From Desulfomonilaceae bacterium (GTDB lineage Bacteria; Desulfobacterota; Desulfomonilia; Desulfomonilales; Desulfomonilaceae): a DNA stretch of 32,000 bases. Where the stretch lies: assembly GCA_052146735.1 (NCBI GenBank), contig JBKQMK010000202.1, positions 4,633 to 36,632 of the forward strand. The letters are read 5' to 3'. Under the pieces are notes generated by a model. That model was not told the origin of the DNA. It saw only the letters and a list, made by a program, of their open reading frames with translations, and did no database searches. Shown here in pieces: positions 4,299 to 30,659 of the stretch; the first letter of the stretch is position 1; each line of letters opens with the position of its first letter. Both the position numbers and the translations under genes were made by a program.

Positions 4299-4338
4299 AG
4301 TAACCGAGATTTAGTTTGCCGCTAATACTGCACTAACC
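4299..4338 (+). promoter_or_regulatory. Four 11-nt-phased direct half-sites upstream of PstS-like paralogue 1
   Basis: AGTAACC gaga TTTAGTT tgcc GCTAATA ctgc ACTAACC. The TA(A/G) cores start at 4301, 4312, 4323 and 4334, exactly 11 nt apart. Function is inferred only. Confidence 0.3.
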
Positions 4339-5429: not shown

Positions 5430-5588
5430 GTTTATATACAAATTCAGTTAGCCGCTTCCGCAGGGACAGAGAAATCTTGATCGATGGTGTCAACGCGGAT
5501 CCTGTAGCGAGACCACGTAGAAATGCATGGTCTTCGGGTCAAGTATTTGATATGGCGAAGGAAATGAAAGGACATCGAGGGTAATCAA

Positions 5589-5948
5589 ATGCACGGGAGT
5601 GGTGAGGCGGAAAGAGAGACAATTCGACCTGAATTTGATCCTTCAATCATGATCGATTTTCAGGGGGACAAGATTACTTGTGGCACGGGTTTTCCGTTGC
5701 TTTGAGCGATAGACGACCGCTTTGGCATTTTTGATCGAATCGGGAGCGAACAGGAGGATACCAGATCCAGGGTTCGCAGCAAACTCTCTCAGCTTCAAAT
5801 GGCCTGGTAGAGGAGCTATCAGATAGCGGCTGGGTATAGCGCGCCGCATAATTCCGCCTTGTTCGGAGGACGTGATCCCCTTGTCAAGCAGTTGCGCCCG
5901 CGAAACGGTTCCCCGACCACGGCTGAAGTCAAGAATTCATGCGCCTAG
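5589..5948 (+). pseudogene. Decayed N-terminal fragment of an IS1380-family-like DDE transposase
   Basis: One frame reads MHGSGEAERETIRPEFDPSIMIDFQGDKITCGTGFPLL*AIDDRFGIFDRIGSEQEDTRSRVRSKLSQLQMAW*RSYQIAAGYS..DPLVKQL..*. From memory this resembles the IS1380 N-terminus (..F.GG.lTSdaGllLLRelDeRlGl..rl......R....H.l..Ll.QR.yqIaaGYED..D). It has two in-frame stops and no catalytic domain. Confidence 0.45.
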
Positions 5949-6000
5949 TGGATGCAGAGTCACGCATAACTGGTTTGTGAGAAACTATGTTCAAACAATA

Positions 6001-6039
6001 TCTTAATTTCAATCTAATCGTGTCTTAACCCATGTAACC
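6001..6039 (+). promoter_or_regulatory. Phased direct half-sites plus -10-like TATTAAT upstream of PstS-like paralogue 2
   Basis: TCTTAAT ttcaa TCTAATC gtg TCTTAAC cca TGTAACC. TAA cores start at 6004, 6015, 6026 and 6035, a spacing of 11, 11 and 9 nt. TATTAAT lies at 6056-6062, about 45 nt before ATG 6108. Confidence 0.3.
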
Positions 6040-6107
6040 AAGAATCTGAGTCTCGGTATTAATAGAGGTCCTGATTAGAAACGGCTCTCCTTAGAAAGGA
6101 AGATATT

Positions 6108-6959
6108 ATGTGTAAACGGTTGGTTTTCGTCGCGTGCGTGTTGACTATTTCAGCCGCACTTGTGGATCACAGTTTCGCTCAAGACAAAAATAGCCTGAAA
6201 ATCCAAGGGTCAAAATATGTAGCCTTTACGTTGACTGATTGGGCGAAGGCCTACATGGATCAACAGCCAAATGCCTCGATCAAGGTTGAGGCTGTCGACT
6301 CCGTGGAAGGATTCCAATCATTCCTGAAGCGGAGTTCTGATGCTCTGGCCGTGTTCGGACAGTTGGAGGAGGACGAGAAGGGTGAAGCAGAGGAGAAAGG
6401 CATGGTCGTCACGGAAAGGATCATCGGTTGGGGCGCAGTCGCCATCATTACGCATCCGAAGAATCCGGTCAATGAGCTTTCGATCGATCAGGTCAAGAAG
6501 ATCTTCTCAGGAGCCTACAAGAACTGGAACCAGGTGGGCGGCCCCGATCTTCCGATCGTCGCAATCACCAGAGATGAGGCAATGTCAGGCACTGAAAGGC
6601 TTTTTAGGGACCTTGTCCTCGATGGTTCGCCAGTGGACCAGGACACCAAGCGCCTGCTCTCGTATGACATAATACGTGCCGTTTTAAAGGATCCCGGCTC
6701 TATTGCCGATGCCCGTTACACAGAGGCCATTCGCGGCAGGATTAAAGGAATGGCGAAGATCCTTGCTCTCAAAAAAGATGAAAGCAGCCCGGCGGTAATG
6801 CCGTCAGCGGAAACATTGCAGAACCGCTCATATCTTCTCTCTGCTCCGATGGTTATTTGCTACGATTCAAAAGAGAATTCCGGTGTCCTACAAGCATTCA
6901 CCGAATTTTGTTCAAAGAGAGGATTAGGGGAACGGTTCGCGGAATCTCAGTCGAGATAG
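6108..6959 (+). CDS. PstS-family (PBP_like_2) periplasmic substrate-binding protein, paralogue 2
   Basis: Signal peptide MCKRLVFVACVLTISAALVDHSFA. VNELSIDQVKKIF..W..VGG and TRDEAMSGTERLFRDLVL. Colinear with paralogue 1 along its whole length, with roughly half of positions identical by eye. RBS GAAAGGAAG upstream. Confidence 0.85.
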   Translation: MCKRLVFVACVLTISAALVDHSFAQDKNSLKIQGSKYVAFTLTDWAKAYMDQQPNASIKVEAVDSVEGFQSFLKRSSDALAVFGQLEEDEKGEAEEKGMVVTERIIGWGAVAIITHPKNPVNELSIDQVKKIFSGAYKNWNQVGGPDLPIVAITRDEAMSGTERLFRDLVLDGSPVDQDTKRLLSYDIIRAVLKDPGSIADARYTEAIRGRIKGMAKILALKKDESSPAVMPSAETLQNRSYLLSAPMVICYDSKENSGVLQAFTEFCSKRGLGERFAESQSR

Positions 6960-8745: not shown

Positions 8746-9834
8746 TTACTTCCACGCGGGCGCTCCGGCTGCGGTTACCTGCTTTGTCCAATCTGATTCC
8801 ACCAGGTTGTAAACATTGAGCGGTATTGGCACGTAGTGCAGATCCGTGGCCATCGACTGTCCCTGCTTGAAGCACCAGTCGAAGAACTTGAGCATGGCTC
8901 CAGCCTTTGCAGGAGCGAGTTGATCTTTGTATATGAGAATATATGAGGCTCCAACGATAGGCCAACTCTTCTCCCCAGGTTGGTCGGTAAGCACCATGTA
9001 GAAACCGGGAGCCTTATCCCAATCGGCATTGGCAGCCGCAGCTTGAAATGTCTCGATAGTTGGGGCGACGAATTTGCCCGCGCGATTCTGGAGTTGGACA
9101 AACTTCAATCTTTCTCGCAGAGCGTACGCATACTCAACATAACCAATGGCTCCATCAGTTTTCTTCACCAGAACGGAGACCCCTTCATTCCCTTTGCCCC
9201 CCACGCCGGTGGGCCAGGAGACGGACTTGTCGTTTCCTACTTTTTCTTTCCAGTCTGGTGATACCTTGCTAAGATAGTTGGTGAAAATCCAGGTAGTCCC
9301 CGAGCCGTCGGCCCTGTGCACCACAGTGATTTCCTTGTCAGGCAATCTCAAGTCCGGGTTCACTGCCATTATTCTTGGGTCATTCCATTTCTTGATCTTG
9401 GCAAGGTATATGTCTGCCAAGAGTTCAGGTGTAAGTTTGAGTTTGCCTTTTGCTATGCCTTCAACGTGGATAACCGGAACGACGCCGCCCATTATCATGG
9501 GAAACTGGACCAGTCCGTGCTGGTTCAACTCTTCTGCTTTCAGAGGTTCATCGGAGGCCCCAAAGTCAACCGTTTTGGCTTTGATCTGGACTATTCCTCC
9601 TCCGGACCCGATTGCCTGATAGCCTATCTTCAAGCCAGTGTTTTGGTTGTACTTTGTAGCCCATTTGGCATAGACGGGATACGGGAAAGTGGCACCCGCG
9701 GCACTCAAACTCTCAACGTCCGGGGCCGCATTTGCAAACAGCGCTGCCTGCAAAGCCAGTAAGACAGCCACAACCAGCGTGAGTTTAATCTTTGAGGTTG
9801 AATTGACCCCGCAAGAAAGAATCCGTCGCCCCAT
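8746..9834 (-). CDS. pstS: Phosphate ABC transporter substrate-binding protein PstS
   Basis: Signal peptide ..KLTLVVAVLLALQAALFANA. Canonical GATFPYPVYAKWATKY.., GYQAIGSGGGIVQIKAKTVDFGASDEPL, VHRADGSGTT. AAGGAGG RBS. No pstC, pstA, pstB or phoU adjacent. Confidence 0.92.
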   Translation of the reverse strand: MGRRILSCGVNSTSKIKLTLVVAVLLALQAALFANAAPDVESLSAAGATFPYPVYAKWATKYNQNTGLKIGYQAIGSGGGIVQIKAKTVDFGASDEPLKAEELNQHGLVQFPMIMGGVVPVIHVEGIAKGKLKLTPELLADIYLAKIKKWNDPRIMAVNPDLRLPDKEITVVHRADGSGTTWIFTNYLSKVSPDWKEKVGNDKSVSWPTGVGGKGNEGVSVLVKKTDGAIGYVEYAYALRERLKFVQLQNRAGKFVAPTIETFQAAAANADWDKAPGFYMVLTDQPGEKSWPIVGASYILIYKDQLAPAKAGAMLKFFDWCFKQGQSMATDLHYVPIPLNVYNLVESDWTKQVTAAGAPAWK

Positions 9835-10433
9835 TTTGTCCTCCTTTTTGTCTTCAGCAAGATGTTGTCACCATGTTTACAAGAAACTTTAGATGATGCC
9901 CGACTGCCCTTCGGGATGCTTGGGCGGCATATGTTTGAAGGACAGCACGGGCATCCGGAGCCGGGATTTCATTAGAAACGATCAATGTTAAGAGATCGCT
10001 AGTGCAAAGTTAAAAGTTAGATAGAAGTGGAAACCTTCCGTGCTCGATCGCGAGCCCGAAACCACGGTGTGTATTTGCTGCCAGTCCTCAACATCTCGTC
10101 TCTAACTTTTCAAAATCGGTATTTCTAACAAACATTTATAACAGACCTAACCAGTGGCTCACATTTTCGGACCATTCTGTTTCTGCACTAACATCACCAT
10201 GTTGGTATTGAGAATCCACAAGAAAGCGTATCTCATCAAAACTTGGCATCGATATGTGCTGAACGAAGCAAGGTTTAATGAAAAACTCACGCCTGAGTAA
10301 TATTCCGATAACAGACGCAGTCCTAGTAAGGGGCCGGCTGCGGTCACGAGTCAGGACAGGTTGGATGGTCCTGAAATTCGCTTCACGCGGTTCCATGGAA
10401 CTGGCCGATTTTGAGAATAATTAGGAGGAAAGA

Positions 10434-11126
10434 ATGGCGGAATGCAGTCTCAGTACAGGTTTACTCAAAGATGTCCTTCAGCACGCCAAACCGCTCGGGC
10501 ATAACCAAAAACCCCGCAATTTGAACCTTGGTTTCGGCTTCATTTATTATGGCGTTGTAAGGGCCCTCAGACCCAAACACACCCTGGTGATTGGTTCAGG
10601 ATACGGCTTCAGTGTGGTCTGCCTGGCTCTTGCCCTGAAGGACAATGGACAGGGCTCCCTTACGTTTGTGGATCCCTCGTATTCTTTGCTAAAGGATGGT
10701 CCCCTAAAAACCATGGGAGGCCGCGCCACTTGGAGTTCCGACACCAGCGTTAAAGAGCATTTCCGGAGATTCGGAGTTGAAGATATCGTAACCCACCACA
10801 AGATGAGGAGCGACCAATTGTTTCCTTCTTACGAAGACTTACAGTTGTCTCCCATCGACCTGGGCTTTATCGACGGAAATCATTCATATGAGGATGTGAA
10901 ATACGATTTCATCAGTATGCTCGGCCGTTGTCGCAAGAATAGTTACATCTTTCTTCACGATACTAACATCTACGTTAGAGAATTCCTTCACCATTCGGGG
11001 GTCAAACGGTGGCTGAAGATTGTGAAGAGAGAGGAGCAAGCGTTCGAAGTGATAAATTTCCCTTTTTCATCAGGTGTTGCACTAGTGCGAATCTTGGAGC
11101 CCGCTATATGGAAACAAGTTCACTGA
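10434..11126 (+). CDS. Class I SAM-dependent methyltransferase (Methyltransf_24/TylF-CmcI-like)
   Basis: TLVIGSGYGFSVVCLALAL (SAM-binding Gly loop), LTFVDPS, GFIDGNHSYEDVKYDF. RBS AGGAGGAAAGA before the ATG. Confidence 0.7.
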   Translation: MAECSLSTGLLKDVLQHAKPLGHNQKPRNLNLGFGFIYYGVVRALRPKHTLVIGSGYGFSVVCLALALKDNGQGSLTFVDPSYSLLKDGPLKTMGGRATWSSDTSVKEHFRRFGVEDIVTHHKMRSDQLFPSYEDLQLSPIDLGFIDGNHSYEDVKYDFISMLGRCRKNSYIFLHDTNIYVREFLHHSGVKRWLKIVKREEQAFEVINFPFSSGVALVRILEPAIWKQVH

Positions 11127-11809
11127 CTCGCATCATCTTGCCATGCGTTTTGGTAATAATCGCTGCATTCCTGTTCTGGCGCTACATCTGGTTCTTCCGG
11201 AACCCGCCGCGAACCATTGCTGGGGGTGAAAACATGGTTAGCCCTGCCGACGGGACAGTCGTGTATGTCAAGACGGTTCAGCCCAATGAAGAGGTAATAG
11301 TTATAAAACAAGGGGTCTCAGCCCGCATCAAGGACATAGTACGACAGGACATGGACGCGCCCAAGCTGGTGGTAGGCATCTTCATGAGCCCATTTAATGT
11401 TCACTATAACCGCGCGCCAATAGCGGGGAGGGTCGAGCAGATCGTTCACCATCCCGCCAAGACAAGGAACTTACATATGGGACCAATGCACCTTCGGACA
11501 TTGATTAATCACCTACCCCTTTATGAAAACAGCCTCCACATAGTGGAGAATGAGAGGACCGTGACGAGGATCAGAGGAAGATTCAAAGGAGATGATGTGT
11601 CCTGCTACGTGGTCCAGATAGCGGGAAAAAGCGTGAGCGGAATTGACAGCTATGTCCTTGAAGGGGGAGGGGTCCGCAAGGGAGAAATCTTTGGAATGAT
11701 CCGCATTGGATCTCAGGTAGACGTAGTTGTTCCGGAGTTTGCCGGAATGCAAGTCAAGGTCCACCCTGGAGATAAAGTTTGGGCCGGAGAGTCTGTGCTT
11801 GTGGAATAA
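11108..11809 (+). CDS. Phosphatidylserine decarboxylase family protein, small Asd-like type with N-terminal TM helix
   Basis: ORF 11009..11809. Likely start ATG 11108 (METSSLTRIILPCVLVIIAAFLFW), overlapping the methyltransferase gene by 19 nt. VSPADGTVVYV, IFMSPFNVHYNRAPIAGRV, and a candidate pyruvoyl self-cleavage site IRIGSQVDVVVP. Confidence 0.8.
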   Translation: METSSLTRIILPCVLVIIAAFLFWRYIWFFRNPPRTIAGGENMVSPADGTVVYVKTVQPNEEVIVIKQGVSARIKDIVRQDMDAPKLVVGIFMSPFNVHYNRAPIAGRVEQIVHHPAKTRNLHMGPMHLRTLINHLPLYENSLHIVENERTVTRIRGRFKGDDVSCYVVQIAGKSVSGIDSYVLEGGGVRKGEIFGMIRIGSQVDVVVPEFAGMQVKVHPGDKVWAGESVLVE

Positions 11810-11857: not shown

Positions 11858-14353
11858 ATGAAAATCGATCTGCATGTCCATTCTAAGTTTTCCAGACGGC
11901 CTTCGGAGTGGATCCTCAAAAAGCTTGGGTGTCCGGAAAGTTTCACCGACCCCTTGCATCTTTACACAATTGCAAAAAAGAGAGGAATGTCCGCGGTCAC
12001 AATCACCGACCATAATACAATCGAGGGCTCTATGGAAATCGCCCATCTTCCGGACACTTTCGTAAGCGAGGAAGTGACTACCTATTTCCCTGATGACAGG
12101 TGCAAGCTTCATGTTCTCGTGTATGACATCGATGAGCAAAAGCACCAAGACATTCAAAAGATACGGGAGAATGTGTTCGACCTGACAGCTTACCTCAGAG
12201 AAAGCAGGATAACCCACGTCCTCGCTCATCCGCTATTTTCTATAAATGGGAAACTGAGCATCGAACATTTCGAGAAGTGTCTGCTCATTTTCAAGAATTT
12301 TGAACTGAACGGCGCGCGAAATGAGGAACAGAACCGGTGCCTCGAACTCGTACTCTCGATTCTGACCCCGGAAAAGATTGAACAACTTGCAGAAAAGCAC
12401 AATTTGACGCCATCATTTGTTTTCCCGTGGGTAAAGAACCTGACCGGAGGATCGGATGATCACAGCTCGCTTACCATAGCCCGCAGATATACTAAAGTAG
12501 AAGCGGCGACCGGAGTGGAACGGTTTCTGCGGGGAGTCGAACAGAACGAGGCTGCAGTTGCCGGTCCGGGATCGAGTCCCAAAACATTGGCTCACAATGT
12601 GTACAGCGTAGCATATCAGTTTTATCAGAATAAATTTGATTTGAAGCGGTACGTTAATAGTGACGTCATCTTTAAATTTCTGGACCGATTCCTTCAAGTG
12701 GGCCAAGACCGTGAGCCCGGCCTTCTGGCAAGACTGGATTTCTATTGGAACCACGGGAAGAGGCCAAAGGCTGCCGACAGAGGAAATGGGACCGTCATGA
12801 ACTTGCTGCGGCAGGAGACTCACCGACTGATTTGGGATGATCCGCAACTTTCGGAGATATTCAAAAACGGTAACGGAGATAGCGAAACTCTCGACGAAAA
12901 ATGGTTCCGTTTTGTGAACAAAGTCTCGATTAAGGTAGTAGAGCACTTTACGGACCACGTAATGGACAGCCTTGCCGGAGCCCACTTTCTGAACCTGTTT
13001 AACGCTCTGGGTTCTGCCGGGGCGCTATATTCGGTGCTGGCGCCGTATTTTGTCGCATTCTCGATCTATTCGGAGGATAGGCAGTTCGGCGATACAGTGC
13101 TACGCCGGTTTCTCGAGGAAAAGCCGAACCCCTCAAAGCGTGCCGACAGCATCAAGGTTGCGCACTTTACTGACACGTTCTATGAAGTCAATGGAGTTGC
13201 GGGCACGTTGAAGGCGCAAATAGGCGCTGCTCTCAGAACCGGCAAGAACTATACCGTGGTAACCTGTGACCCTGGACATCACACCAGCACCAAGGGCGTC
13301 ACGAACTTCAAGCCCATCGGAGTTTACGAAACGCCTGTTTATCCGGAACAAAAGCTCTTCTATCCTCCTTTTCTGGAAATGCTTGACTACTGCTACAATG
13401 AAGCATTCACTCACATTCATTGCGCTACACCAGGTCCTCTCGGACTCGCAGCACTAGCCATTGCGCGCATATTGAAGGTTCCTGTAGTGGGAACTTATCA
13501 TACAGCCCTACCTCAATATTCCCAGTATCTTACAGAGGACGCCACCATCGCTGAACTGATGTGGAAATACGTCTTATGGTACTATGACCAGATGGATCGC
13601 GTGTTCGTGCCATCCAGGAGCACGGCTGCCGAACTTACGGAAAGGGGAATATACTCGCACAAGGTTGTAGTGACTCCGAGAGGAGTGGACACCAGCCGAT
13701 TCTGCCCGACTAAGCGCAATGGGTGTCTTGATGAGTATTGCAGCAGCAAAGAAGCGGTGAAGCTCCTGTATGTGGGTCGAGTTTCCAAAGAAAAAAACTT
13801 GGAACTACTTGTGAAGGCTTTCCGGGAGTTGGTCCAGTCAGGGGAAGAAGTGAATCTGTTCATTGTGGGGGACGGTCCGTACCGCGAAGAGATGGAGCGG
13901 GCTTTGACGGAGACTCCGACCATTTTCATGGGATACGTGGAGGGTGAGGCGCTTGCGGAAGTCTATGCTTCCTGCGATCTTTTTGTGTTTCCCAGCACCA
14001 CCGATACCTTCGGAAACGTGGTTCTGGAATCTCAGGCATCCGGTCTCCCGGTTATTGTGACCAATTGCGGCGGGCCTCGAGAGAACATGATTCCGGGAAA
14101 AACAGGTCTGATCGTCGAAGGAAACAGTGAGAAAAGCCTTCTGGACGGAATACAGACCTTGCTGTCAGACCCACGGCGTCTGAAGGAGATGGGGAAGGCG
14201 GCCCGTGGGTACGCGGAGAATCGCTCATTCGACATTGCGTTCAACAAGTCGTGGGACCTTTACACCGAAACTCCTGAATCCTTTGGGACCGGCTCTCAGG
14301 TACCTTGGATTTGGTCCTTTCCGGCAGAGGGCCCACAGAGGCGGTCGGCTTAG
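11858..14353 (+). CDS. Fusion protein: N-terminal PHP metal-dependent phosphoesterase + unknown hydrophobic linker + C-terminal GT4 (GT-B) glycosyltransferase
   Basis: PHP: MKIDLHVHSKFS, ITDHNTIEG, VLAHP, GGSDDHS. Linker has the hydrophobic stretch FLNLFNALGSAGALYSVLAPYFVAFSIY. GT4: VAHFTDTFYEVNGVA, GRVSKEKNLELLVKAF, FVFPSTTDTFGNVVLESQASGLPVIVTNCGGPRENM. Confidence 0.85.
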   Translation: MKIDLHVHSKFSRRPSEWILKKLGCPESFTDPLHLYTIAKKRGMSAVTITDHNTIEGSMEIAHLPDTFVSEEVTTYFPDDRCKLHVLVYDIDEQKHQDIQKIRENVFDLTAYLRESRITHVLAHPLFSINGKLSIEHFEKCLLIFKNFELNGARNEEQNRCLELVLSILTPEKIEQLAEKHNLTPSFVFPWVKNLTGGSDDHSSLTIARRYTKVEAATGVERFLRGVEQNEAAVAGPGSSPKTLAHNVYSVAYQFYQNKFDLKRYVNSDVIFKFLDRFLQVGQDREPGLLARLDFYWNHGKRPKAADRGNGTVMNLLRQETHRLIWDDPQLSEIFKNGNGDSETLDEKWFRFVNKVSIKVVEHFTDHVMDSLAGAHFLNLFNALGSAGALYSVLAPYFVAFSIYSEDRQFGDTVLRRFLEEKPNPSKRADSIKVAHFTDTFYEVNGVAGTLKAQIGAALRTGKNYTVVTCDPGHHTSTKGVTNFKPIGVYETPVYPEQKLFYPPFLEMLDYCYNEAFTHIHCATPGPLGLAALAIARILKVPVVGTYHTALPQYSQYLTEDATIAELMWKYVLWYYDQMDRVFVPSRSTAAELTERGIYSHKVVVTPRGVDTSRFCPTKRNGCLDEYCSSKEAVKLLYVGRVSKEKNLELLVKAFRELVQSGEEVNLFIVGDGPYREEMERALTETPTIFMGYVEGEALAEVYASCDLFVFPSTTDTFGNVVLESQASGLPVIVTNCGGPRENMIPGKTGLIVEGNSEKSLLDGIQTLLSDPRRLKEMGKAARGYAENRSFDIAFNKSWDLYTETPESFGTGSQVPWIWSFPAEGPQRRSA

Positions 14354-14411
14354 ACAGTCTGCTCTTCTTTTACTGGTGCTGTGACAAAAATTGGCTGCTG
14401 AATTGACATCT

Positions 14412-15272
14412 ATGCCATTGGACTATTATTTGGCGTCAGTGCTCGACTGGACCCAGAGTCTTGGTGGATGGGGCCTCATTGTCGTTGCAGCCTTGTATGT
14501 CCTGGCGTGCCTACTGTTTCTCCCCGGATCGATACTTACTCTAGGGGTCGGCTTCTTGTTCGGTGCTCCCGCGGGAGTTTTGACCGTGTTGACGGGAGCC
14601 AATTTCGGGGCTTGCGCCGTTTTCGTCGTTGGCCGGACTATTGCTCGTGACTGGATAGCCCGGAAGATAGCCGATAACCCGAAACTTGCAGCCCTGGATG
14701 TTGCTGTAGGTAAAGAAGGGTTTAGGATGGTGCTGCTGCTCCGGCTGAATCCGGTGGTTCCTTTCAATGTTCTGAATTATGCCCTTGGCCTTACCAAGGT
14801 TTCCTTCCGCGATTACGCTCTCGCAACACTGATTGGTATGCTTCCTGAGACCCTGATATTGGTCTACCTGGGCTCCGCGGCAAAATCTTTAGCCGATTCG
14901 GTTACAGGCCAGGCAGACAGTGGTACGGCCGGTCGCGTTTTTATGTGGATCGGACTTGCAGCCACGATAGGCGTTGCAATCTTGGCAACACGGATTGCCC
15001 AACGGAGCCTGAAGGCGGCCCGAACGCCGGCACGCGATGCCCGCATGGCTACACCTGTTGAAGGGCTTCGAGAAAAAGAGGTCAATAATCGAACAATTCC
15101 GGTCTGGGCGTGTCGGACGTTCCCTATCCCCTCACGTGGATTTGAACCAACCATCCCCCAATTTATCGGCGAACAACCTGCCAACCCTTTGGATTCCAGG
15201 ATCGAACACTCTTCATTCTCAGACTTTATGCGCTCCACGCAACCAAGCACGCACTTGTCGGATGAGCGATAA
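14412..15272 (+). CDS. TVP38/TMEM64 (DedA/SNARE-associated) family membrane protein with non-conserved-looking C-terminal tail
   Basis: ORF 14391..15272, with TTG at 14391 and the first ATG at 14412. LLFLPGSILTLGVGFLFG and RLNPVVPFNVLNYALGLTKVSFRDY. The last ~90 aa are hydrophilic and unlike the family core. Confidence 0.75.
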   Translation: MPLDYYLASVLDWTQSLGGWGLIVVAALYVLACLLFLPGSILTLGVGFLFGAPAGVLTVLTGANFGACAVFVVGRTIARDWIARKIADNPKLAALDVAVGKEGFRMVLLLRLNPVVPFNVLNYALGLTKVSFRDYALATLIGMLPETLILVYLGSAAKSLADSVTGQADSGTAGRVFMWIGLAATIGVAILATRIAQRSLKAARTPARDARMATPVEGLREKEVNNRTIPVWACRTFPIPSRGFEPTIPQFIGEQPANPLDSRIEHSSFSDFMRSTQPSTHLSDER

Positions 15273-15357: not shown

Positions 15358-15419
15358 TGTACACATTATGTAATCAATGTTTTGATTCGATCACGAAACG
15401 TGTTTTACAGAAGCAAATC
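15358..15419 (+). promoter_or_regulatory. Operator/promoter module copy A, upstream of the LysR gene
   Basis: TGTACAC-ATTA-TGTAATC direct repeats, the inverted repeat CACG-AAA-CGTG, and GCAAATC. 46 of 62 positions are identical to copy B in an ungapped alignment (hand count), with the same internal spacings. Confidence 0.5.
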
Positions 15420-15462
15420 GGCCGTATTCACCTGGACAAAAAGTCAGAGGAAACCGAAAGTG

Positions 15463-16350
15463 ATGAATCTGGAGCATGTCAAATCCTACTTGGCGGTTGT
15501 GCGCACTGGGAGCTACCATAAAGCTGCCAAGCACCTCGGATTGGCTCAGCCCACGGTCAGTCAGCATATCAGAAAACTGGAGAAAACCCTTGGCGCCACA
15601 TTGATCATCCGCGACCGCAATGGATGCTTCATGGCGCCACGCACTGAAGCCTTTGCACGCCAGGCCGAGTCGTTAGTCCGGATCGCGGACAAGGCGCGGA
15701 ATGCTTTGCGCCGTCCGACGATGACTGTGGGGGCCAGCACAAATGTAGGGACCTACCTGCTGCAGCCCATGTTTAAAGACTTCTACGAAGCTAATCGCGA
15801 GTCGCTGACTCTAGACCTGGTCATTGATCGCAATGATCGGATCGCGGATCGTCTCGAGAGTGATGAGATTGATGTTGCAGTCATGGAGTGGTGGGACAAT
15901 CGAGCGGGTTTCGTGAACCGCCCTTGGAAGAAGGAACGACTGGTGGTGATTGTTCCTCCCGGTCATCCCTGGAGCACTCGAAAATCTATCTCAGCGGAAG
16001 AGCTAATGGGGGAAAGGATGATCGGAGGCGAATCGGCCACGGGAACTGGCCGAGTACTGCGTGAAGCCCTGGGGGATCTTATGTCTGAATTTCACGTGGC
16101 ATTCAAACTTGGGAGCACGGAGGCCGTTAAGAACGCCGTTCAGACCGGGCTTGGAATTTCTATGGTCTTGGCGAGTTCAGTTGTGGACGAGGTCAAAAGC
16201 GGGGCGCTTAAAGCCATACATATCGATGGCCCTTGGCTCGAAAAGGAACTCATGGTCATTCATCGTCGCGGCCTTCCTAGTGACAGCGTCGCGGTAAGGT
16301 TCGCCGAGAAACTGACAAAAGAAAACGCGGTTTCGCTCGCGCCTTCTTGA
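15463..16350 (+). CDS. LysR-family transcriptional regulator (PtxE-like by context)
   Basis: ORF 15382..16350. Start ATG 15463 follows AGAGGAAA. HTH VKSYLAVVRTGSYHKAAKHLGLAQPTVSQHIRKLEKTLGATLIIRD, followed by a LysR substrate-binding domain. Confidence 0.88.
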   Translation: MNLEHVKSYLAVVRTGSYHKAAKHLGLAQPTVSQHIRKLEKTLGATLIIRDRNGCFMAPRTEAFARQAESLVRIADKARNALRRPTMTVGASTNVGTYLLQPMFKDFYEANRESLTLDLVIDRNDRIADRLESDEIDVAVMEWWDNRAGFVNRPWKKERLVVIVPPGHPWSTRKSISAEELMGERMIGGESATGTGRVLREALGDLMSEFHVAFKLGSTEAVKNAVQTGLGISMVLASSVVDEVKSGALKAIHIDGPWLEKELMVIHRRGLPSDSVAVRFAEKLTKENAVSLAPS

Positions 16351-16421
16351 AGTAATCATTTTCACCTGTGATACCAATGCGCTGCCGAATAAGTAATCCC
16401 GCCGATGAAGGGACTGACCGG

Positions 16422-16490
16422 CGTTTCGGGCAGGTCTCCGGAGCGCACTCACCCTATGCCGTTCATAGCGTAAGAGATCTGCCCGAAACG
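16422..16490 (+). other. Long inverted repeat: 17-bp stem with one G.U, 35-nt loop, between the LysR gene and the ptx promoter module
   Basis: CGTTTCGGGCAGGTCTC (16422-16438) pairs with GAGATCTGCCCGAAACG (16474-16490). No U-tract follows. Confidence 0.45.
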
Positions 16491-16614
16491 GCACCAACTG
16501 CTCTGACGCAGTACTACTCGTTTGAAAGCGCCTTGTTATTACGGGTCTTCATTGGTCGAGGAAAAGGATTAACCATTTTTTAGTTTGATCCTAATTCCTA
16601 CCAAATTTTGTCCG

Positions 16615-16676
16615 GGTAAACATTATGTAATCAAAATCCTTTTTCGATGACGAAACGTCATCCATCGCAGCAAATC
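16615..16676 (+). promoter_or_regulatory. Operator/promoter module copy B, upstream of the ptx operon
   Basis: GGTAAAC-ATTA-TGTAATC, the perfect 7-bp inverted repeat GATGACG-AAA-CGTCATC (16646-16662), and GCAAATC (16670-16676). See copy A. Confidence 0.5.
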
Positions 16677-16743
16677 TCCCATTTTACGCCGCACTCGATG
16701 CGAGGGAGATTGGGATTTCCATCCGCTGAAAGAAGGAAAGACC

Positions 16744-16869
16744 ATGGCAAGTCAGCACCTAAATCTGAAAAGTTTGGCGGCGGTCACCGCGATTGAGGCA
16801 TGTTTCCTGCTCGTTGCCCGCAGTTTCCGTGCGCAGCAGACGAAAGACGGGCAAATCGCTGAAATTTAG
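16744..16869 (+). CDS. Candidate 41-aa small ORF/leader between the ptx promoter module and ptxA
   Basis: Below the ORF-track size cut-off. GAAGGAAAG RBS, then ATG. MASQHLNLKSLAAVTAIEACFLLVARSFRAQQTKDGQIAEI*. No family recognised. Confidence 0.25.
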   Translation: MASQHLNLKSLAAVTAIEACFLLVARSFRAQQTKDGQIAEI

Positions 16870-16991
16870 TTTCCAATTTCGCAACGAGAAAGCCGATGAG
16901 GCGCTTGCTCCTTACTTAGTTTTACTCCAGCGGTGTTGAAACTGGTGTAGGGACATCACTCTTCCGCGGGATACCGGATGGGGAGAATGAA

Positions 16992-17750
16992 ATGATTGAA
17001 TTGGACGGAGTCGGCATGTGCTATCCAAGCGGAACCGAGGCACTTCGGCCGACATGCCTCAGATTCTACAAGGGACACTTTACCGTGTTGCTGGGGCCGT
17101 CTGGCGCCGGCAAGTCTACACTGCTCCGCTGTCTCAACTTCCTGACCAGGCCTACGTGCGGTCAGGTAGTCATCGAAGGTCTGGGAAAACTCGACTTCAA
17201 CGCGAGAAAACTGCGACAACTCAGAGGCTTCACCGGCATGATTTTCCAACAGCATCAATTGATATCCGGCCAGAGCGCTTTGAAAAACGTTCTGGTGGGC
17301 CGACTCGGAAAATATAGCTCGTTTCGTAGCCTCTTTCCATTGCCAAGGCGTGAACAGGAGTTCGCGTTGGAATGTCTTGAGCGAGTCGGCCTTCTGGATA
17401 AGGCGCTGGAAAGAGTGGACAACCTTAGCGGAGGCGAGCAACAGCGGGTAGGCATAGCACGAGCACTTGCTCAAAAACCCCAGTTGATTCTCGCAGATGA
17501 ACCGGTCGCAAGCCTCGATCCCGGTACGGCTGACAGCGTGCTTTCACTCCTCCATAAGATAACCAAAGAGGATGTCATTCCCGCAATTGTCAGTCTTCAC
17601 CAGGTGGAATGGGCGAAAAAGTACGCTGACCGAATCATAGGACTGTCAGAAGGAGCTGTAGTGTTTGACGGAAGCCCCCAGAGCCTGTCCTCGGACATGC
17701 TCCAGCAGATATATCACGTGAAAAAAGTGAGGATCCCGGCCGCAGCCTGA
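16992..17750 (+). CDS. ptxA: Phosphite/phosphonate ABC transporter ATP-binding protein (PhnC family)
   Basis: Walker A GPSGAGKST, signature LSGGEQQRVGIARAL, Walker B LILADEPVASLD. The symbol is assigned from operon context with ptxD. Confidence 0.85.
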   Translation: MIELDGVGMCYPSGTEALRPTCLRFYKGHFTVLLGPSGAGKSTLLRCLNFLTRPTCGQVVIEGLGKLDFNARKLRQLRGFTGMIFQQHQLISGQSALKNVLVGRLGKYSSFRSLFPLPRREQEFALECLERVGLLDKALERVDNLSGGEQQRVGIARALAQKPQLILADEPVASLDPGTADSVLSLLHKITKEDVIPAIVSLHQVEWAKKYADRIIGLSEGAVVFDGSPQSLSSDMLQQIYHVKKVRIPAAA

Positions 17751-17815
17751 GTACGAGTGACGAGACACGATTATCGTATTGGGCTGGAGCCGGACTACCC
17801 TTGACTGCCATCTAG

Positions 17816-18703
<888 letters not shown>

Positions 18704-18724
18704 CGACTGCTGGAGCGCTGTTTC

Positions 18725-19522
18725 ATGAATGAACGTTACGACCGGGTACTAATCGAACAACGGAGGCAATGGTATTATTCGGCACTCCAGATCGCCCTGG
18801 TTGCTCCTGTCATCGCAATCTGTTTCTACTATGTAGGGTTGTTTGATCGGAAACGAGTGCTGGACGGCATACCATCTATATTGAGCCTGATCGCTGAAAG
18901 CCTGCCTCCAAATTTCAGTGACCTGCCCAATTGGTTCAAACCTCTTTTGGACACCTTGGCCATGAGCATTGCGGGCACAGCGATAGCAGTGGGATTATCG
19001 CTGCCGCTGGCCTTGCTCGGAGCACGTAATACGTCTCCACACCCACTGGTGTATCAGTTCACCCGAGGCGTGCTTAACGGATTGCGCTCCGTTCCAGAGC
19101 TGATAATGGGCATCATTTTTGTGGCTGCCGTCGGCTTTGGTGCGTTGCCGGGAGTGCTGGCACTGGGCCTTCACTCAGTGGGAATGGTAGGAAAATTCTT
19201 TGCCGAAGCCATTGAGCATGTGGCAGAGGAACCCGTTGAAGCGGTCAAGGCCGTAGGTGCGCGGCCAATGCAGGTTATTCTTCATGCAGTGCTACCACAG
19301 GTCTCGTCGCAAATAGCAGACGTGTCAATCTACCGGTGGGAGTACAATTTTAGGGCGTCGACGGTGATGGGAATGGTCGGAGCAGGCGGCATCGGTTGTG
19401 AATTGATGAGCGCGTTGCGAATCATGCAATATCAGCACGTATCAGCCATTCTGATCGTTATTCTGCTGATGGTCACATTGGTTGATAGCTTTGGCGCCCA
19501 CCTGAGGCAGCGCTTCAAATAG
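18725..19522 (+). CDS. ptxC: Phosphite/phosphonate ABC transporter permease (PhnE family)
   Basis: Multi-TM protein with a PhnE-like loop RSVPELIMGIIFVAAVGFGALPGVLALGLHSVGMVGKFFAEAIE. Confidence 0.85.
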   Translation: MNERYDRVLIEQRRQWYYSALQIALVAPVIAICFYYVGLFDRKRVLDGIPSILSLIAESLPPNFSDLPNWFKPLLDTLAMSIAGTAIAVGLSLPLALLGARNTSPHPLVYQFTRGVLNGLRSVPELIMGIIFVAAVGFGALPGVLALGLHSVGMVGKFFAEAIEHVAEEPVEAVKAVGARPMQVILHAVLPQVSSQIADVSIYRWEYNFRASTVMGMVGAGGIGCELMSALRIMQYQHVSAILIVILLMVTLVDSFGAHLRQRFK

Positions 19523-19542
19523 AGCCCAAAAAGGTCTGATGA

Positions 19543-20529
19543 ATGAAACATCGTGTGGTCATAACATCTTGGGTGCACCAGGAGGTGGTCCAGCTATTAG
19601 AGCAATCGTGCGAAGTCATCCCAAATAACGAGCGGGAGCCTCTGACACGTGAGGAAATCTTGCGACGAACACAAGACGCTCATGCCCTTATGGTCTTTAT
19701 GACAGACAGTATAGACGACGATTTCCTGATTGCCTGCCCGAATCTGAAGATTGTGGCCGCGGCTCTCAAGGGCTACGACAATTTCGATGTGGAAAGTTGC
19801 ACGCGGCGCGGCATTTGGTTCACCATTGTGCCGGACCTCCTCACCATTCCTACGGCAGAACTGGCGGTGGGGCTTCTGATCGGTTTGACGCGGAAGATGC
19901 TCGACGGCGACCGCTTCGTCCGGACAGGTCAGTTCAGAGGCTGGCGCCCCAAGCTTTACGGTACGGGTTTGGCCGGCCGATGTGTGGGAATAGTCGGGAT
20001 GGGGGCTTTGGGCCAGGCGGTCGCAAAACGCCTGGCTGGCTTTGAAATGGAATTGCTCTACACAGATCGAGTCCCTTTACCAGAGCGACAAGAACAAGCC
20101 TGGGGCCTCAGTCGCGTTTCTATGGAAAGTCTTTTGGGACGAAGCGATTTTGTGCTCTTATCCGTACCACTGACTCCTGATACCCTTTGCTTTATCGATG
20201 ACAAGGCCCTTGCCAAAATGAGGCCGGGCAGCTTCCTTGTCAATGTATGTCGGGGGTCTGTGGTGGATGAGGAGGCTGTTGTGTCGGCGTTGGCCTCCGG
20301 GCATCTTGCAGGATACGCGGCCGATGTATTCGAGTTCGAAGACTGGGCCAGGAAGGACGCTCCATCGGGTATCTCCCGGTCGCTTCTCGAAGAGGGCACC
20401 ACCTTTTTCACTCCCCACCTCGGTTCGGCTGTGGACGACGTGCGCCGTGAAATTGCATTGGAAGCCGCACGCAACATTCTGCAAGCATTCGCCGGAACCA
20501 AACCCGAGGGTGCCATAAATCGACTATAG
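19543..20529 (+). CDS. ptxD: NAD-dependent phosphite (phosphonate) dehydrogenase, D-2-hydroxyacid dehydrogenase family
   Basis: Colinear with my recollection of Pseudomonas stutzeri PtxD. Shared blocks: [42 protein letters not shown] (GxGxxG), CRGSVVDE (catalytic Arg), [14 protein letters not shown] (Glu), FTPHLGSAV (His). Confidence 0.9.
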
Positions 20530-22650: not shown

Positions 22651-23832
22651 GAGAATATCCGCTTTGTCAGTCGCCTCCCACGGCAAGTCCATATCTGTCC
22701 GACCGAAATGACCGTAGGCGGCAAGTCTGCGATAAAATCCTCCCTTAGACTTGGAAGGCAGCCTAATCAAGTCGAACTGTTTGATGATCCCGCCCAGCCT
22801 AAAATCAAAATTCTTTTCCACCAGAGCACTGATTTCATCATCGGAGATCTTGCCCGTTCCCATGGTCTCCACCTGGATGCTCACCGGGCCCGCGAGGCCG
22901 ATTGAATAGCTGAGTTGAACCTCGCACTGGTCAGCCAACCCTGCGGCAACAATGTTCTTGGCTGCGTAGCGGGCTGCATAGGCCCCGACCCTGTCAATTC
23001 TCAACGGATCTTTTCCGCTCAGAGCGGACCCGCCGTTTCTCGAATACCCACCGTATGTGTCAATTGCGTTCTTTCTGCCCGTAAGACCCGAGTGCACGGA
23101 CGGCCCGCCCAATTTCAGAGGACCCCCCGGGTTTATTAATATTCTGGTTTTTTTGTCCGGGCCTATGGGCTCACCCTCAAATACCGCCTGTACAACCGCC
23201 TCCATCACGTCCTCTCGGAGACGCTCCGGTTTGGGGTAGGTCCGATCGTTCTGGCTTGAATTGATCGTGATGCTGTGGATTCTGCGAGGCACTCGATTAC
23301 GGTATTCCACACCGACCTGTGTGGTGCCGTCAGGCGCCAGATACGGCAACACGCCCTGCAGGCGCACTTCGGAAAGTCTTCGCGAAATCTTGTGCGCAAG
23401 CCATATCGGGAGTGGCAAGAGTGTAGGTGATTGATTGCACGCAAAACCGAAAAGAGTGACTTGATCGTATGCCACGATTCCGTCAATGTCTTTCTCGGAA
23501 GCTTCTTTTTCGTCAACCAGACAAGGATGCTCCGGCGTCATTTCTTTTAGGCTGGTTAGTATACTGCACGTTTTAAAGTTGAATTCATGGTCAATGTAGC
23601 CGATTTTTCGGATGACCTTTCTGGCTACGTTCGGAAAGTCCACCTTGACCTCCGATGCAAACCTGGCAGCGATGAAAACCAGGGAGAGCGACACCGCACA
23701 TTCGGCGATAATCCTGGCACAGACGTCACGTTCGAGAAAGCGGTCTACAATAGCATCGCTTATTTGATCGCACAGTTTATCGGGATGTCCTTCGGTAACC
23801 GATTCTGACGTGTGTATGAAGTCTTTTTTCAT
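22642..23832 (-). CDS. metK: S-adenosylmethionine synthetase family protein, divergent MetK-like
   Basis: Full-length colinearity with MetK: SESVTEGHPDKLCDQISDA, GLTGRKNAIDTYGG, SGKDP, AAYAARYAAKNIVAAGLA, AAYGHFGR. The GAGDQG motif reads VAYDQV, GGGAFSGKD reads NGGSALSGKD, and GGEIT reads AARFA. The ATG overlaps the ATPase stop codon (ATGA). Confidence 0.8.
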   Translation of the reverse strand: MKKDFIHTSESVTEGHPDKLCDQISDAIVDRFLERDVCARIIAECAVSLSLVFIAARFASEVKVDFPNVARKVIRKIGYIDHEFNFKTCSILTSLKEMTPEHPCLVDEKEASEKDIDGIVAYDQVTLFGFACNQSPTLLPLPIWLAHKISRRLSEVRLQGVLPYLAPDGTTQVGVEYRNRVPRRIHSITINSSQNDRTYPKPERLREDVMEAVVQAVFEGEPIGPDKKTRILINPGGPLKLGGPSVHSGLTGRKNAIDTYGGYSRNGGSALSGKDPLRIDRVGAYAARYAAKNIVAAGLADQCEVQLSYSIGLAGPVSIQVETMGTGKISDDEISALVEKNFDFRLGGIIKQFDLIRLPSKSKGGFYRRLAAYGHFGRTDMDLPWEATDKADILKT

Positions 23833-26800
23833 TTGCTTTGCACCGCTCCGCCTTTCGTGGCTTCAGTAATGAGTAGAGGAGCCAAGGAGGCAACCCCGAT
23901 CACGAGTGCGTCAAAGGCGCCCACCGGGGTTGTACCGAGCAAACTTCTCAGTCCGGGAACAAGGAAAGTGCCCAATTGTAACCCGAGCGAACCGATGACC
24001 GCTATGTTCAGGTACTTGTTGGGAGCCGCTTTCTCCGCATCGAATATGCTGCGGTGTTCCGAACGACAACTTATCGCGTGCAGGATCTGTGATGTCGTAA
24101 GGCTTTGAAACGCTAATGTTCCCGCTGCGGGACCCATGCCGTATCTCATGACCCCGTAGCCGTACGCTGCCAGTGAAGCCGTTGTCATTGTTGCCGCTTC
24201 GAAGGTTATTCTTTTAAAATCCTCCGTTTTGACAATGGGCTCCATAGGGTCCCGGGGGGGCTGGTTCATCACGTCCGGTTCGGCCGGTTCCAGAGCCAAA
24301 GCAAGGCCGGGAAATATATCGGAAACAAGGTTGATCCAGAGTAGTTGCATAGCATTAATGGGGTATCCCAATCCCAGGGCGCCTGCTATGAACATCACCT
24401 GGATTTCGCTGAAATTGGTGGCGAGAAGATAGTGGAGCGTTTTCCTGATATTGTTATAAATGGTTCGGCCATCGCTTATGGCAATAATCAGGGTTTCAAG
24501 GTCATCTTCCTCCAGTACCACGTCAGCCACATCACGAGCCACATCAGTGCCGGCCCGCCCCATGGCTATGCCGACGTCGGCTGCCTTGAGAGCAGGTCCG
24601 TCATTGATACCGTCGCCGGTCATGGCTACAACTTTGCCGGTGCTCTGAAGAGCTTGGACGATCTGGAGCTTGTTCGATGGGCTGACCCTTGAAAAGACGT
24701 GGACCTCGCTGCTCAGGGCTTTCAAGACGGCAGGATCGGTGCTTGTGAGATGTGTCGAATCGAGAATCTCTAATGACCCTCCATTATTAAGCCCCAACTC
24801 TTTGCCTACTGCATAAGCCGTGGGGCTCTGGTCCCCCGTGATCATTACCGTTTCGAGACCGGCCTTATGAAACATTGCGATGGATTCTTTTACCCGTTCC
24901 CTTATAGGGTCGGCCATGCCAACGAGCCCCAGCCAGGTAAAACCATTTTCGTTCTCCAACTGCTCTTCGCCATTCCGGATCGCGTACGCGACGCCAAGGA
25001 CCCGCAAAGCCTTGCCCGCCATCGCGTCATTTTCAGCATCAATGAGGTCTCTGTCTTCGTCACTAAGAGGGACTGTTGTCCCGTCCTTAATTTGATGGCC
25101 GCATTTAGCCAGAACTTCCGCAGGGCTTCCTTTCATAGCAACCAATCTGGTGTTATCCACAGACCCGTGTACAGTGCTCATGAATTGGCGATTATCGGAC
25201 CGGTAGTTAGTATCCATCAACGGGTGCTGCTCTCTCAAAGCGCGAACATCCACACCTGCGCTTATGGCCATGTGAATCAGAGCGTTCTCGGTCGCAGAGC
25301 CGTTCAACACATGTTGGCGCTTCCTCGTCTCTATTTGGGTCTCGTTGCACAGCACGCAGACATGAATAAGTTTCAAGACCTCGTCAGAGTTGCAGGGATC
25401 TAAAGTCCCTGCCGTGCCATAGAAGAGACCCTCCTTTATTTCTATGCGCTCCATCCCGGAATAGATTCTTAGGACCGACATCTTGTTATGCGTTATGGTG
25501 CCAGTCTTGTCGAAACATATCGTCTGGACCGAGCCGAGCGTGCATATTGCATCGAGATTCCGGATCAGGACTTTGTGCCGTCTCATGTTCTTGATCCCGA
25601 GCGCAAGCGTGGTCGTTGCAACAGCCGGCAGACCTTCCGGAACAGCCGCAACCGCAAGAGAAATTGCCGTCTTCAACATCTGGAGAAACCCGTTCCCGCG
25701 GACGAGGCCGATGAAGAAAACTAACCCGCAAACAGCGCCGGAGATTAAAACCAGTTGATCGCCTATTGTGCTTAACTGTCTCTCAATGGGCGTCTCAGGG
25801 GCTTCGGCCTCGCCAACAAGGCACTGGATTTTCCCCATTTCTGACAATCGACCGATGGCTACCACAACTCCCAGGCCCTGGCCTCCTGTAATCAAGGTGC
25901 CCGAGTAGATCATGTTGGTGCGATCTGCAAGAGGAATCCTTGAGCCTTTGAGCGGCAATGCAATCTTGCTAACAGGCATGCTTTCGCCTGTGAGCACCGA
26001 TTCGTCGGCAGTCAAATGACCGGCCTCCACCAGCCTCGCGTCGGCAGTGACGTAGGTCCCGGGCTTGAGCACAAGAATGTCTCCCACCAGAACCTGCTCC
26101 GCGGGTATTTCCAGCGAGCTTCCATCTCGCATTACCTGGGCGTAAGGGCGGATCAGCTTCTTCAGTGAATTAATGGTCTTTTCTGCCTCACTTTCTGTAA
26201 CATAGCCAATTACCGCGTTGATGCCAACCACGGCCATAATTACAACGGCGTCAGCCAGGCCCCCGGTAACCACGGAGAGGCCGGCAGCGGCAGCCAGCAA
26301 CCCAACGGGGAGAGACATGAACTGGTCGATAAAGATCGCCCACTTGGAGCGAGAAAGCGCCTCAGGGACAACATTGAGGCCGTATTTGCTAAGGCTGGTC
26401 TTGGCTGCTTCGGCTGACAGTCCTTTTTTCTTTGAGGAATTCAGCGACGCAAGCACGAATTTGGCGTCCATTAAGTGCCAGGGCTTGGTCTCCTGCTCTC
26501 TCGTAGCAAGAAAATACGGCTCATCTTTCTTGCCGCGGGTGACCCTGAGCTCGGTTACACGGGCGGGGACGCTCTGTGGAAAAAGGCCCGAACCATTCTC
26601 TCCCTGAGACGCTTCTAGCTCTTGCTGGTAAGTTACAGCGATCTGCTCCACGTGCGAAGCGATCTTGCGGGGGTTGCAGTCGGGATCAAAGGTAATAAGG
26701 ACGTTTCCGGTCAGAATGTTGGCAGAAACTTCACCCACCTCCGGGACTTCCAAAAGCAACATTTCCAGTCGGTATTTGAGTGACACTGAACGGTAGAGGC

Positions 26801-26855: not shown

Positions 26856-26993
26856 CTCGGTTAGCCTCTAAGGCGCAACAGTACACTTCCGCGCCGGAAC
26901 GCAGTACGTCACGCCGAAATTTGCCCTCTGCTTCATCAAAAAGGGGTTTAAGTTAATCTATTTATCGCAACACCGAGGGTTGGGACGTGGATA

Positions 26994-27515: not shown

Positions 27516-27543
27516 TCGCCCTCCCTTTGCGATGTCTGATCCT

Positions 27544-29560: not shown

Positions 29561-29644
29561 TCCACCACTCCCTTTAGATCGCTTTTGGCATGAAATGATT
29601 TGTGCATCCGTACGCAGCAGGCAGATCACTCAGAAGCATGTTTT

Positions 29645-30655: not shown

Positions 30656-30659
30656 ATAT

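Follow-up and report, generated by a model that had tools for sequence, protein, structure and literature searches.

A PHP phosphoesterase-GT4 fusion of Desulfomonilaceae as a probable phosphate-starvation glycolipid synthase of the Dde_3613 family

Lipid inventories from anoxic waters and sediments that are poor in phosphate are dominated by phosphorus-free glycolipids. One described system pairs a Pho-linked phosphoesterase with a family 4 glycosyltransferase (GT4) and is represented by PlcP of Sinorhizobium and Phaeobacter, Agt of Agrobacterium (Atu2297) and GTcp of SAR11 (PMC4796936, PMC8231724). The diacylglycerol (DAG) acceptor must arise via phosphatidate dephosphorylation or phospholipase C (Sebastian et al.). 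Fusions of the sucrose-phosphate synthase/sucrose-phosphate phosphatase (SPS/SPP) type also place a GT4 synthase and a phosphatase in one polypeptide, with a HAD-type C-terminal phosphatase and soluble products. The gene analyzed here combines a phosphoesterase and a GT4 domain in a similar way. It lies in a 32,000-nucleotide (nt) stretch of contig JBKQMK010000202.1 of a Desulfomonilaceae bacterium (GCA_052146735.1), which is referred to as the window, and it is a single open reading frame of 831 amino acids (aa) with an ATG start at 11858-14353 (+). In contrast to SPS/SPP, the phosphoesterase is PHP-type and N-terminal, the context is one of membrane lipids and an orthologue has a lipid phenotype. 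The gene product is probably a glycolipid synthase of phosphate starvation, and the chance that its PHP domain supplies the DAG is about even.

Evidence for the function comes from Dde_3613 of Desulfovibrio (now Oleidesulfovibrio) alaskensis G20, which is described as a 'glycosyltransferase group I, Agt homolog' (Bosak et al. 2016, PLoS One, PMC5193443). The gene is needed for fitness only under phosphate limitation, and the mutant then lacks monoglycosyl-DAG (MGDG) and glycuronic acid-DAG (GADG), which are all of its glycolipids (PMC5193443). Bosak et al. report the homology to Agt and name no DAG source; the words PHP, phosphoesterase and phospholipase are absent from their paper and the 430 N-terminal residues are unmentioned (PMC5193443). 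Full-length matches to the fusion were found in 136 of the 237 Desulfovibrionaceae genomes searched. Cluster look-ups covered ten candidates of this family, and exact-sequence look-ups named several, among them D. desulfuricans, N. vulgaris Hildenborough (AAS94577.1) and O. alaskensis (genome G422). The G422 protein (816 aa) falls in a 90% cluster with ABB40406.1, 'glycosyl transferase group 1' of O. alaskensis G20, and is 50% identical to the 831-aa query over residues 1-803; both genomes carry one copy. The sole OlsF-type acyltransferase gene of G422 lies 50.3 kb downstream of the fusion on the same contig. Dde_3613 and Dde_3661 (olsF) are 48 locus tags apart, which agrees with this spacing and supports the identification of the G422 gene as Dde_3613. 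Judged from the cluster, the annotation and the olsF spacing rather than from a locus tag, the query is taken as the established 1:1 counterpart of Dde_3613, with which it shares the three-part architecture (831 versus 816 aa). The gene is thus a member of a genetically known family.

The protein consists of a PHP domain, a linker and a GT4 domain. A reading of the sequence alone had proposed this layout and it is borne out by Pfam, profile searches, AlphaFold, Foldseek and conserved residues. Residues 1-238 (11858..12571, +) form a PHP-fold metal-dependent phosphoesterase domain of the COG0613/TrpH-YciV-like kind, which is recognized by Foldseek, a profile match to 3e0f and conserved ligands. 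An all-helical linker module occupies residues 239-430 (12572..13147, +), with helices at 241-419 in the AlphaFold model and no solved structural relative. Residues 431-805 (13148..14272, +) form a retaining GT-B GT4 domain of the Agt-like, lipid-glycosylating kind, assigned from Pfam, Foldseek and the orthology to Dde_3613. The AlphaFold model, built from 45 input sequences, is confident for the whole chain with both domains together (pLDDT 86.3, pTM 0.86). Conservation was read from alignments of 36-45 homologues with identities down to about 28%. More than 2,300 full-length homologues were scored and the PHP-linker profile has 899 cluster representatives; therefore, the fusion is not an assembly artefact.

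The GT4 half is the better understood part of the protein. Pfam places Glyco_transf_4 (PF13439) at residues 445-614 with 84 bits and Glycos_transf_1 (PF00534) at 632-783 with 134 bits, both far over their cut-offs. The N-terminus of the domain carries FTDTFYEVNGVA. Foldseek matches this half to MshA, BshA, PimA, PimB' and SPS with a target-normalized TM of about 0.8, and the E values for MshA, BshA and PimA range from 1e-16 to 1e-20. In NCBIfam the C-terminal half is nearest to lipid- and thiol-glycosylating GT4 enzymes, with every model under its cut-off; the top match, NF053787 (N-acetylglucosaminyl-phosphatidylglycerol synthase), scores 147.8 bits against an equivalog cut-off of 480 and covers the C-terminal part only. 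In GTcp the signature Glu of the MshA type is replaced by Asp256, which is paired with His104 (Wei et al., PMC8231724). In the alignments of the fusion H548 is invariant, and the D716-x7-E724 motif (PSTTDTFGNVVLE724) and the glycine-rich donor loops are kept. D716 and H548 match the Asp/His dyad and the Glu-to-Asp signature of the GTcp/Agt clade, where the MshA register was aligned by eye. The fusion and the PlcP + Agt pair therefore have the same GT4 signature, and the expected products are monoglucosyl-DAG (MGlc-DAG) and glucuronosyl-DAG (MGlcA-DAG). Agt and GTcp are single-domain proteins of about 330-350 aa, unlike the 831-aa fusion. Together, the Asp/His signature and the Dde_3613 phenotype make synthesis of the MGDG/GADG type well supported for this half.

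The PHP half is a divergent branch that is recognizable only via profile and fold. Pfam PF02811 scores 14.7 bits on the N-terminus, under the gathering cut-off of 26.4, and a sequence search of residues 1-434 against the PDB gave marginal matches only. A family profile of residues 1-240 matches BAD_1165 (3e0f) with an E value of 6.6e-4 and with the DH, E, H and GGSD-H motifs in register. When the N-terminal 434 residues are modelled alone, the Foldseek matches are PHP structures only. The best of them for this half is RNase AM (7ug9, E 2e-7), along with PsfC (7rty), TM0559 (2anu), BAD_1165 (3o0f) and Cv1693 (2yb1); the target-normalized TM is 0.4-0.6, the fold is a distorted (beta/alpha)7-barrel and the pLDDT of the domain is mostly above 90. 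D4, H6, H8, D51, H52, E72, H85, H124, E149, N151, D200, D201 and H202 are invariant or nearly so. The ligand set HxH, (D)H, E, H, H, DxH (H6/H8, D51/H52, E72, H85, H124, D200/H202) is invariant or at least 90% conserved. The complete PHP metal site suspected from the sequence alone is therefore present, as D4, H6, H8, D51/H52, E72, H85, H124 and D200-D201-H202.

The fusion has the fold and the ligand motifs in common with COG0613-type PHP enzymes (RNase AM YciV/TrpH 7ug9/9etk, Cv1693 2yb1, BAD_1165 3o0f, TM0559 2anu), a group which includes both mono- and diesterase chemistry. Identity to these enzymes is only 14-18%. They are soluble, use nucleotide or RNA substrates and have neither a helical hydrophobic linker nor a glycosyltransferase partner, whereas the fusion has both. 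PlcP in turn is a calcineurin-type metallophosphoesterase (PF00149) encoded by a separate gene, while the fusion has a PHP fold joined to GT4 through a helical linker of 190 aa, and a Pfam scan of the fusion gave no PF00149 match. The fusion therefore at most works like PlcP and is not a member of the PlcP family. A literature search that combined PHP domain, glycosyltransferase, glycolipid and phosphate found no paper.

The linker (residues 239-430) is all-helical and has no Foldseek match. It always accompanies the PHP domain and is kept in stand-alone PHP-linker genes of 430 aa. Residues 377-405 (12986..13072, +) are uniformly hydrophobic in the Kyte-Doolittle analysis, with a best 19-residue mean of 1.46 and a low hydrophobic moment of 0.16-0.22; this segment is the stretch of about 30 hydrophobic residues seen in the sequence-only reading. 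It contains Pro396, which is near-invariant across the alignments and invariant in two of them. The segment is a candidate re-entrant or monotopic membrane anchor, with insertion presumed.

The fusion is present in roughly 60 of the 401 sampled genomes of the phylum, and also in metagenome-assembled genomes (MAGs) of Melainabacteria/Cyanobacteriota and in many soil and freshwater metagenomes. The 899 representatives of the PHP-linker profile were found at E<=1e-30 among 1.84 billion, and their lengths cluster mainly at about 780-850 aa and at about 585-670 aa. Split forms also occur, with coupled translation of the two genes. At locus L159 the genes for a 430-aa PHP-linker protein and a 389-aa GT4 protein share the four bases ATGA, with olsF before and phoH after, and L160 is a second split PHP-linker/GT4 locus; a sequence search with an 812-aa protein of L160 gave nothing useful. 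The 631-632-aa forms at L161 (6001-7896) and L163 (5001-6899) contain PHP, linker and the N-terminal, acceptor-side half of GT4, and the donor-binding half is gone. Their operons contain olsF, the PHP-linker gene, phoH, a PAP2 phosphatase and an unrelated Glyco_trans_1_3 (PF13528) glycosyltransferase. Since the PHP-linker also pairs with this unrelated family, the module follows lipid glycosylation and not one particular glycosyltransferase.

Proteins of 610-650 aa with PHP, linker and the N-terminal Rossmann half of GT4 are a sizeable class (L161, L163, L059/L060). The 659-aa 'truncated' form at L162 is a frameshift-split fusion and was rejected as a true architecture; therefore, not all matches of 600-660 aa are true architectures, and those at L161 and L163 are. 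A longer variant with frames of 950-1035 aa occurs in the Desulfovibrionaceae genus g313, in all seven sampled genomes (G458, G507, G540, G562, G580, G599 and G600). Its match to the query runs to about residue 420 and picks up again only for residues 465-659, a pattern which suggests an insertion together with a diverged or replaced C-terminal half.

In the proposed mechanism the GT4 domain would transfer glucose and/or glucuronic acid from a UDP-sugar to DAG at the cytoplasmic face of the membrane, which is well supported by the genetics of Dde_3613, and the products would be phosphorus-free lipids of the MGDG/GADG type. The PHP domain would be an active trinuclear-metal phosphoesterase that the helical linker and the Pro-kinked hydrophobic segment keep at the membrane, and it would yield the DAG acceptor locally. 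It may do so by cutting the phospho-head group from phosphatidylethanolamine or phosphatidylglycerol, like a phospholipase C, or by dephosphorylating phosphatidate. No choice is made between a phospholipase C and a phosphatidate phosphatase since the nearest PHP relatives show both mono- and diesterase chemistry. By either route, one polypeptide would couple the release of phosphorus to glycolipid synthesis. A lipid role of the PHP half is suggested by ligands that are kept in fused, split and truncated forms, and the constant hydrophobic linker, the tie to the acceptor-side half of GT4 and the occurrence with two unrelated families of lipid glycosyltransferases point in the same direction. 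A PhoB-type regulator acting on phased CTAACA repeats would switch on the operon, which consists of a methyltransferase gene, a phosphatidylserine decarboxylase (PSD)-like gene, the fusion and a DedA gene. As a whole, with glycolipid synthesis by GT4, DAG from PHP and a PhoB-type-controlled operon, this reading is somewhat favored.

The regulatory part of this reading starts from a candidate Pho box at 10125..10174 (+), 260-309 nt upstream of the first start codon of the operon. It consists of five hexamers phased by 11 bp (CTAACA, TTATAA, CTAACC, CTCACA and GGACCA) and is the best-conserved intergenic block across five orthologous loci. The site at offsets 0/22/33 has two mismatches, a score which is seen in 0.3% of random 420-nt windows, and an independent lineage (L076) has a triple site with two mismatches upstream of the same operon. 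Triple CTAACA sites are also found directly upstream of three PstS-family genes (contigs C677 and C155), including the pstSCAB operon of C677. In the regions preceding 16 PstS-family genes no hexamer is more enriched than TCTAAC, and related double sites occur immediately before pstS1 (4322-4338) and at other positions of the window. There is moderate support for 10125-10174 as a candidate PhoB-type site, with the regulator itself presumed. The E. coli-type Pho box (CTGTCAT-N4-CTGTCAT, <=3 mismatches) has three matches in the window, which is the chance level, and none in the intergenic region. A scan for sigma-70 promoters and terminators gave nothing over background, and noise made an all-against-all 10-mer comparison of the intergenic regions unusable.

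Within the window, the triple CTAACA site at 27892-27919 (-) is the strongest, with two mismatches where no such site is expected by chance. It lies 73 nt upstream of an operon of DUF5132, HMA_2 and type-II P-type cation ATPase genes at 23829-27819 (-), and another double site precedes an HMA_2 gene at 22235. In L159 the DUF5132/HMA_2/ATPase set is found beside olsF and both the PHP and the GT4 gene; L163 has a cation ATPase gene beside olsF. It is possible that the cation pump is co-regulated with the lipid genes of phosphate starvation.

The fusion is the third gene of a tight co-directional set. The first gene (10434..11126, +) encodes a class I S-adenosylmethionine methyltransferase of 230 aa (Methyltransf_24, PF13578, 80 bits), which has no NCBIfam match and no PDB sequence match. 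The second gene encodes a short, membrane-anchored protein of the phosphatidylserine-decarboxylase family (233 aa, PF02666, 136 bits) with the pyruvoyl-cleavage-type G-S motif IRIGSQV. Its start, placed earlier at 11009, is corrected to the ATG at 11108 (11108..11809, +), which gives a 19-nt overlap with the end of the methyltransferase gene. In NCBIfam every PSD equivalog score of this protein is under cut-off, and a sequence search against the PDB gave nothing useful. The genome has three PSD-family genes and the likely housekeeping copy is on contig C422. The gap between the PSD-like gene and the fusion is 48 nt, and 37 nt without a convincing terminator separate the fusion stop from the fourth gene (14391..15272, +), which encodes a DedA/VTT-domain membrane protein (293 aa, PF09335, 106 bits). 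The DedA/VTT gene follows the fusion only in the closest relatives (L001 and L011). Divergent from the operon is pstS (8746..9834, -), the product of which is a high-affinity phosphate-binding protein scoring 401 and 397 bits with NCBIfam PstS equivalogs, over their cut-offs. Two more PstS-like genes, a hybrid histidine kinase gene and a ptxABCD-like cluster are also present in the window. The neighbors named in the sequence-only reading (PSD-like, DedA/VTT, divergent PstS and further phosphorus-scavenging genes) were thus correctly recognized.

The triad of methyltransferase, PSD-like protein and fusion recurs in relatives of at least about 50% identity, among them Desulfomonilaceae and Desulfobaccales. 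Desulfovibrionaceae, G20 included, lack it; unlike the query, the Dde_3613 locus has no methyltransferase or PSD-like genes upstream and no adjoining pst genes. In the Desulfomonile-type clade the co-operonic methyltransferase and pyruvoyl decarboxylase may tailor an undescribed head group. In many Desulfobacterota loci pstSCAB, phoU, phoH or phoR lies beside the fusion, and olsF is adjacent in eight loci. Among loci flanked on each side by at least 4 kb, and with all four figures as lower bounds, Pho or P-lipid neighbors are found in at least 7 of 11 loci of close relatives, at least 3 of 11 of distant members of the phylum, at least 1 of 11 of Desulfovibrionaceae and at least 2 of 18 metagenomic loci. 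The immediate neighbors of distant homologues are mostly unrelated. One exception is L114, where a UDP-glucose 6-dehydrogenase gene (5494-6837) is directly upstream of a fusion homologue of 29% identity, which fits a glucuronosyl-lipid product; another is a second, overlapping GT4 gene at one locus.

Several observations weigh against the proposed reading. CTAACA pairs and triples show no genome-wide enrichment over expectation, so the case for the Pho box is one of position and conservation only, and the motif also precedes the cation-ATPase operon. The hydrophobic segment of the linker scores under the classical transmembrane threshold. Desulfovibrionaceae (at least 1/11) and distant phyla (at least 2/18) usually have no adjoining Pho genes, where both counts are lower bounds. 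Some relatives have a PAP2 or a calcineurin-type metallophosphoesterase in or next to the operon that could supply DAG instead. Whether such calcineurin-type neighbors are PlcP orthologues was considered for two examples; they are unrelated (22% identity) and absent from the query's own genome (G000), and nothing was concluded from them. The nearest solved PHP relatives (RNase AM, pAp phosphatase) act on nucleotides or RNA and not on lipids. This last point also favors an alternative in which GT4 makes glycolipids and the PHP half hydrolyzes a soluble phosphoester, either to recover phosphate or to pull the reaction. Its substrate might be the UDP left by the transferase, or phosphoethanolamine or glycerophosphate head groups that another phospholipase sets free, and the PAP2 or Metallophos genes of some related operons would then make the DAG. 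However, G000 has no homologue of either Metallophos protein and the Pro-kinked hydrophobic linker is kept. The PHP-linker also stays on the acceptor-side half of GT4 when the UDP-sugar half is lost, which argues against a role on a nucleotide product. This alternative is considered unlikely, at roughly one chance in five.

The remaining alternatives are less probable still. The PHP-linker could be a non-catalytic module that serves the glycosyltransferase in membrane targeting, oligomerization or regulation, which would suit a Pfam PHP score under threshold and a large, helical linker. Dead domains do not keep their ligands, though, and here all canonical metal ligands are invariant or near-invariant in hundreds of divergent sequences, including stand-alone and truncated ones; a structural role without catalysis is therefore improbable. 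Slightly more improbable is a synthase-phosphatase logic, soluble or lipid, in which GT4 glycosylates a phosphorylated acceptor and PHP then removes the phosphate. SPS enzymes are GT4 enzymes and appear among the structural matches, but as one of many; the top NCBIfam match acts on phosphatidylglycerol, but far under its cut-off. Pfam shows no HAD domain, the neighbors are olsF and pho genes with no osmolyte context, GT4 carries the Asp signature of Agt, the PHP-linker occurs with an unrelated glycosyltransferase family as well and the G20 mutant loses DAG-based glycolipids. The soluble version had been the second proposal of the sequence-only reading, and it is set aside for lack of a HAD-type phosphatase and of an osmolyte or exopolysaccharide (EPS) context, and in view of a linker that looks membrane-directed and the G20 lipid phenotype. 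The least probable alternative is a transferase for envelope polysaccharide or the cell wall, as in the public annotation 'glycosyltransferase involved in cell wall biosynthesis'. It is consistent with the source annotations, weak NCBIfam matches to EPS-type GT4 models and a GT2 gene upstream in O. alaskensis. In contrast, no EPS-type model reaches its cut-off, the G20 phenotype concerns lipids and the fusion is not surrounded by an EPS, lipopolysaccharide or cell-wall cluster in any locus examined, a setting for its orthologues that was named beforehand as evidence against a lipid role. The first proposal of the sequence-only reading, a fused analogue of PlcP and Agt, stands for the biological process and for the GT4 half, given the Dde_3613 orthology, the D716 signature and the Pho, olsF and phoH contexts; the PlcP-like role of PHP is still presumptive.

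Other genes of the window may also relate to lipids or phosphorus. No OlsF homologue was detected in G000 (tblastn E<=1e-8, >=50% coverage), but its absence is unproven because the genome is a MAG with 701 contigs and 9.6% contamination. A second lipid-type cluster at 28511-31937 (-) extends to the contig end. Its genes encode an Lgt-like protein of 372 aa (only 24 bits to PF01790), a member of the PSD family with 348 aa and a protein without family match that has at least 425 aa. L160 and L051 have this trio immediately next to their PHP and GT4 genes. Of the 401 genomes of the phylum, 44 carry the Lgt-like gene, and in at least eight it is no more than about 15 kb away from the fusion. 'Butyramide cysteine glycerol' sulfur-containing aminolipids have been found in phosphate-starved Desulfatibacillum (Ding et al. 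2024, PMC11181052), and it is tempting to speculate that the trio is a pathway for them. The Lgt-like enzyme might move a diacylglyceryl group to a Cys thiol, and the pyruvoyl enzyme might decarboxylate a gamma-Glu-Cys-type head group to 4-aminobutyryl-Cys.

Downstream of the operon, 15382-20529 (+) encodes a LysR regulator, an ABC ATPase, a phosphonate/phosphite-binding protein (PF12974, 265 bits), a permease and a D-2-hydroxyacid dehydrogenase. In its arrangement the region resembles a ptxABCD-type phosphite-oxidation cluster plus a regulator, with the dehydrogenase under all NCBIfam cut-offs.

To our knowledge, Dde_3613 is the sole gene tied to phosphorus-free glycolipids in sulfate reducers, and we know of no study of the phosphoesterase half of its family, which has about 900 cluster-level relatives. 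Nor do we know of a DAG-producing enzyme of either kind named for these anaerobes, or of a PHP fold with other than nucleotide, RNA or small-molecule substrates. For the window, an operon labelled 'cell wall glycosyltransferase' by public pipelines can be given a functional annotation with confidence. For the family, the conserved and apparently active (as predicted) phosphoesterase is a testable source of DAG in organisms without PlcP. It is tentatively proposed, at a little under even chances, that the PHP-linker is an unrecognized family of membrane-interfacial lipid phosphoesterases (phospholipase C or phosphatidate phosphatase) that provides the missing DAG step in anaerobes and many soil bacteria. 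If PHP is a lipid phosphoesterase, it would be a new enzyme class in membrane remodelling, and the PHP-linker would be a better marker of phosphate stress than 'GT4' in metagenomes and metatranscriptomes.

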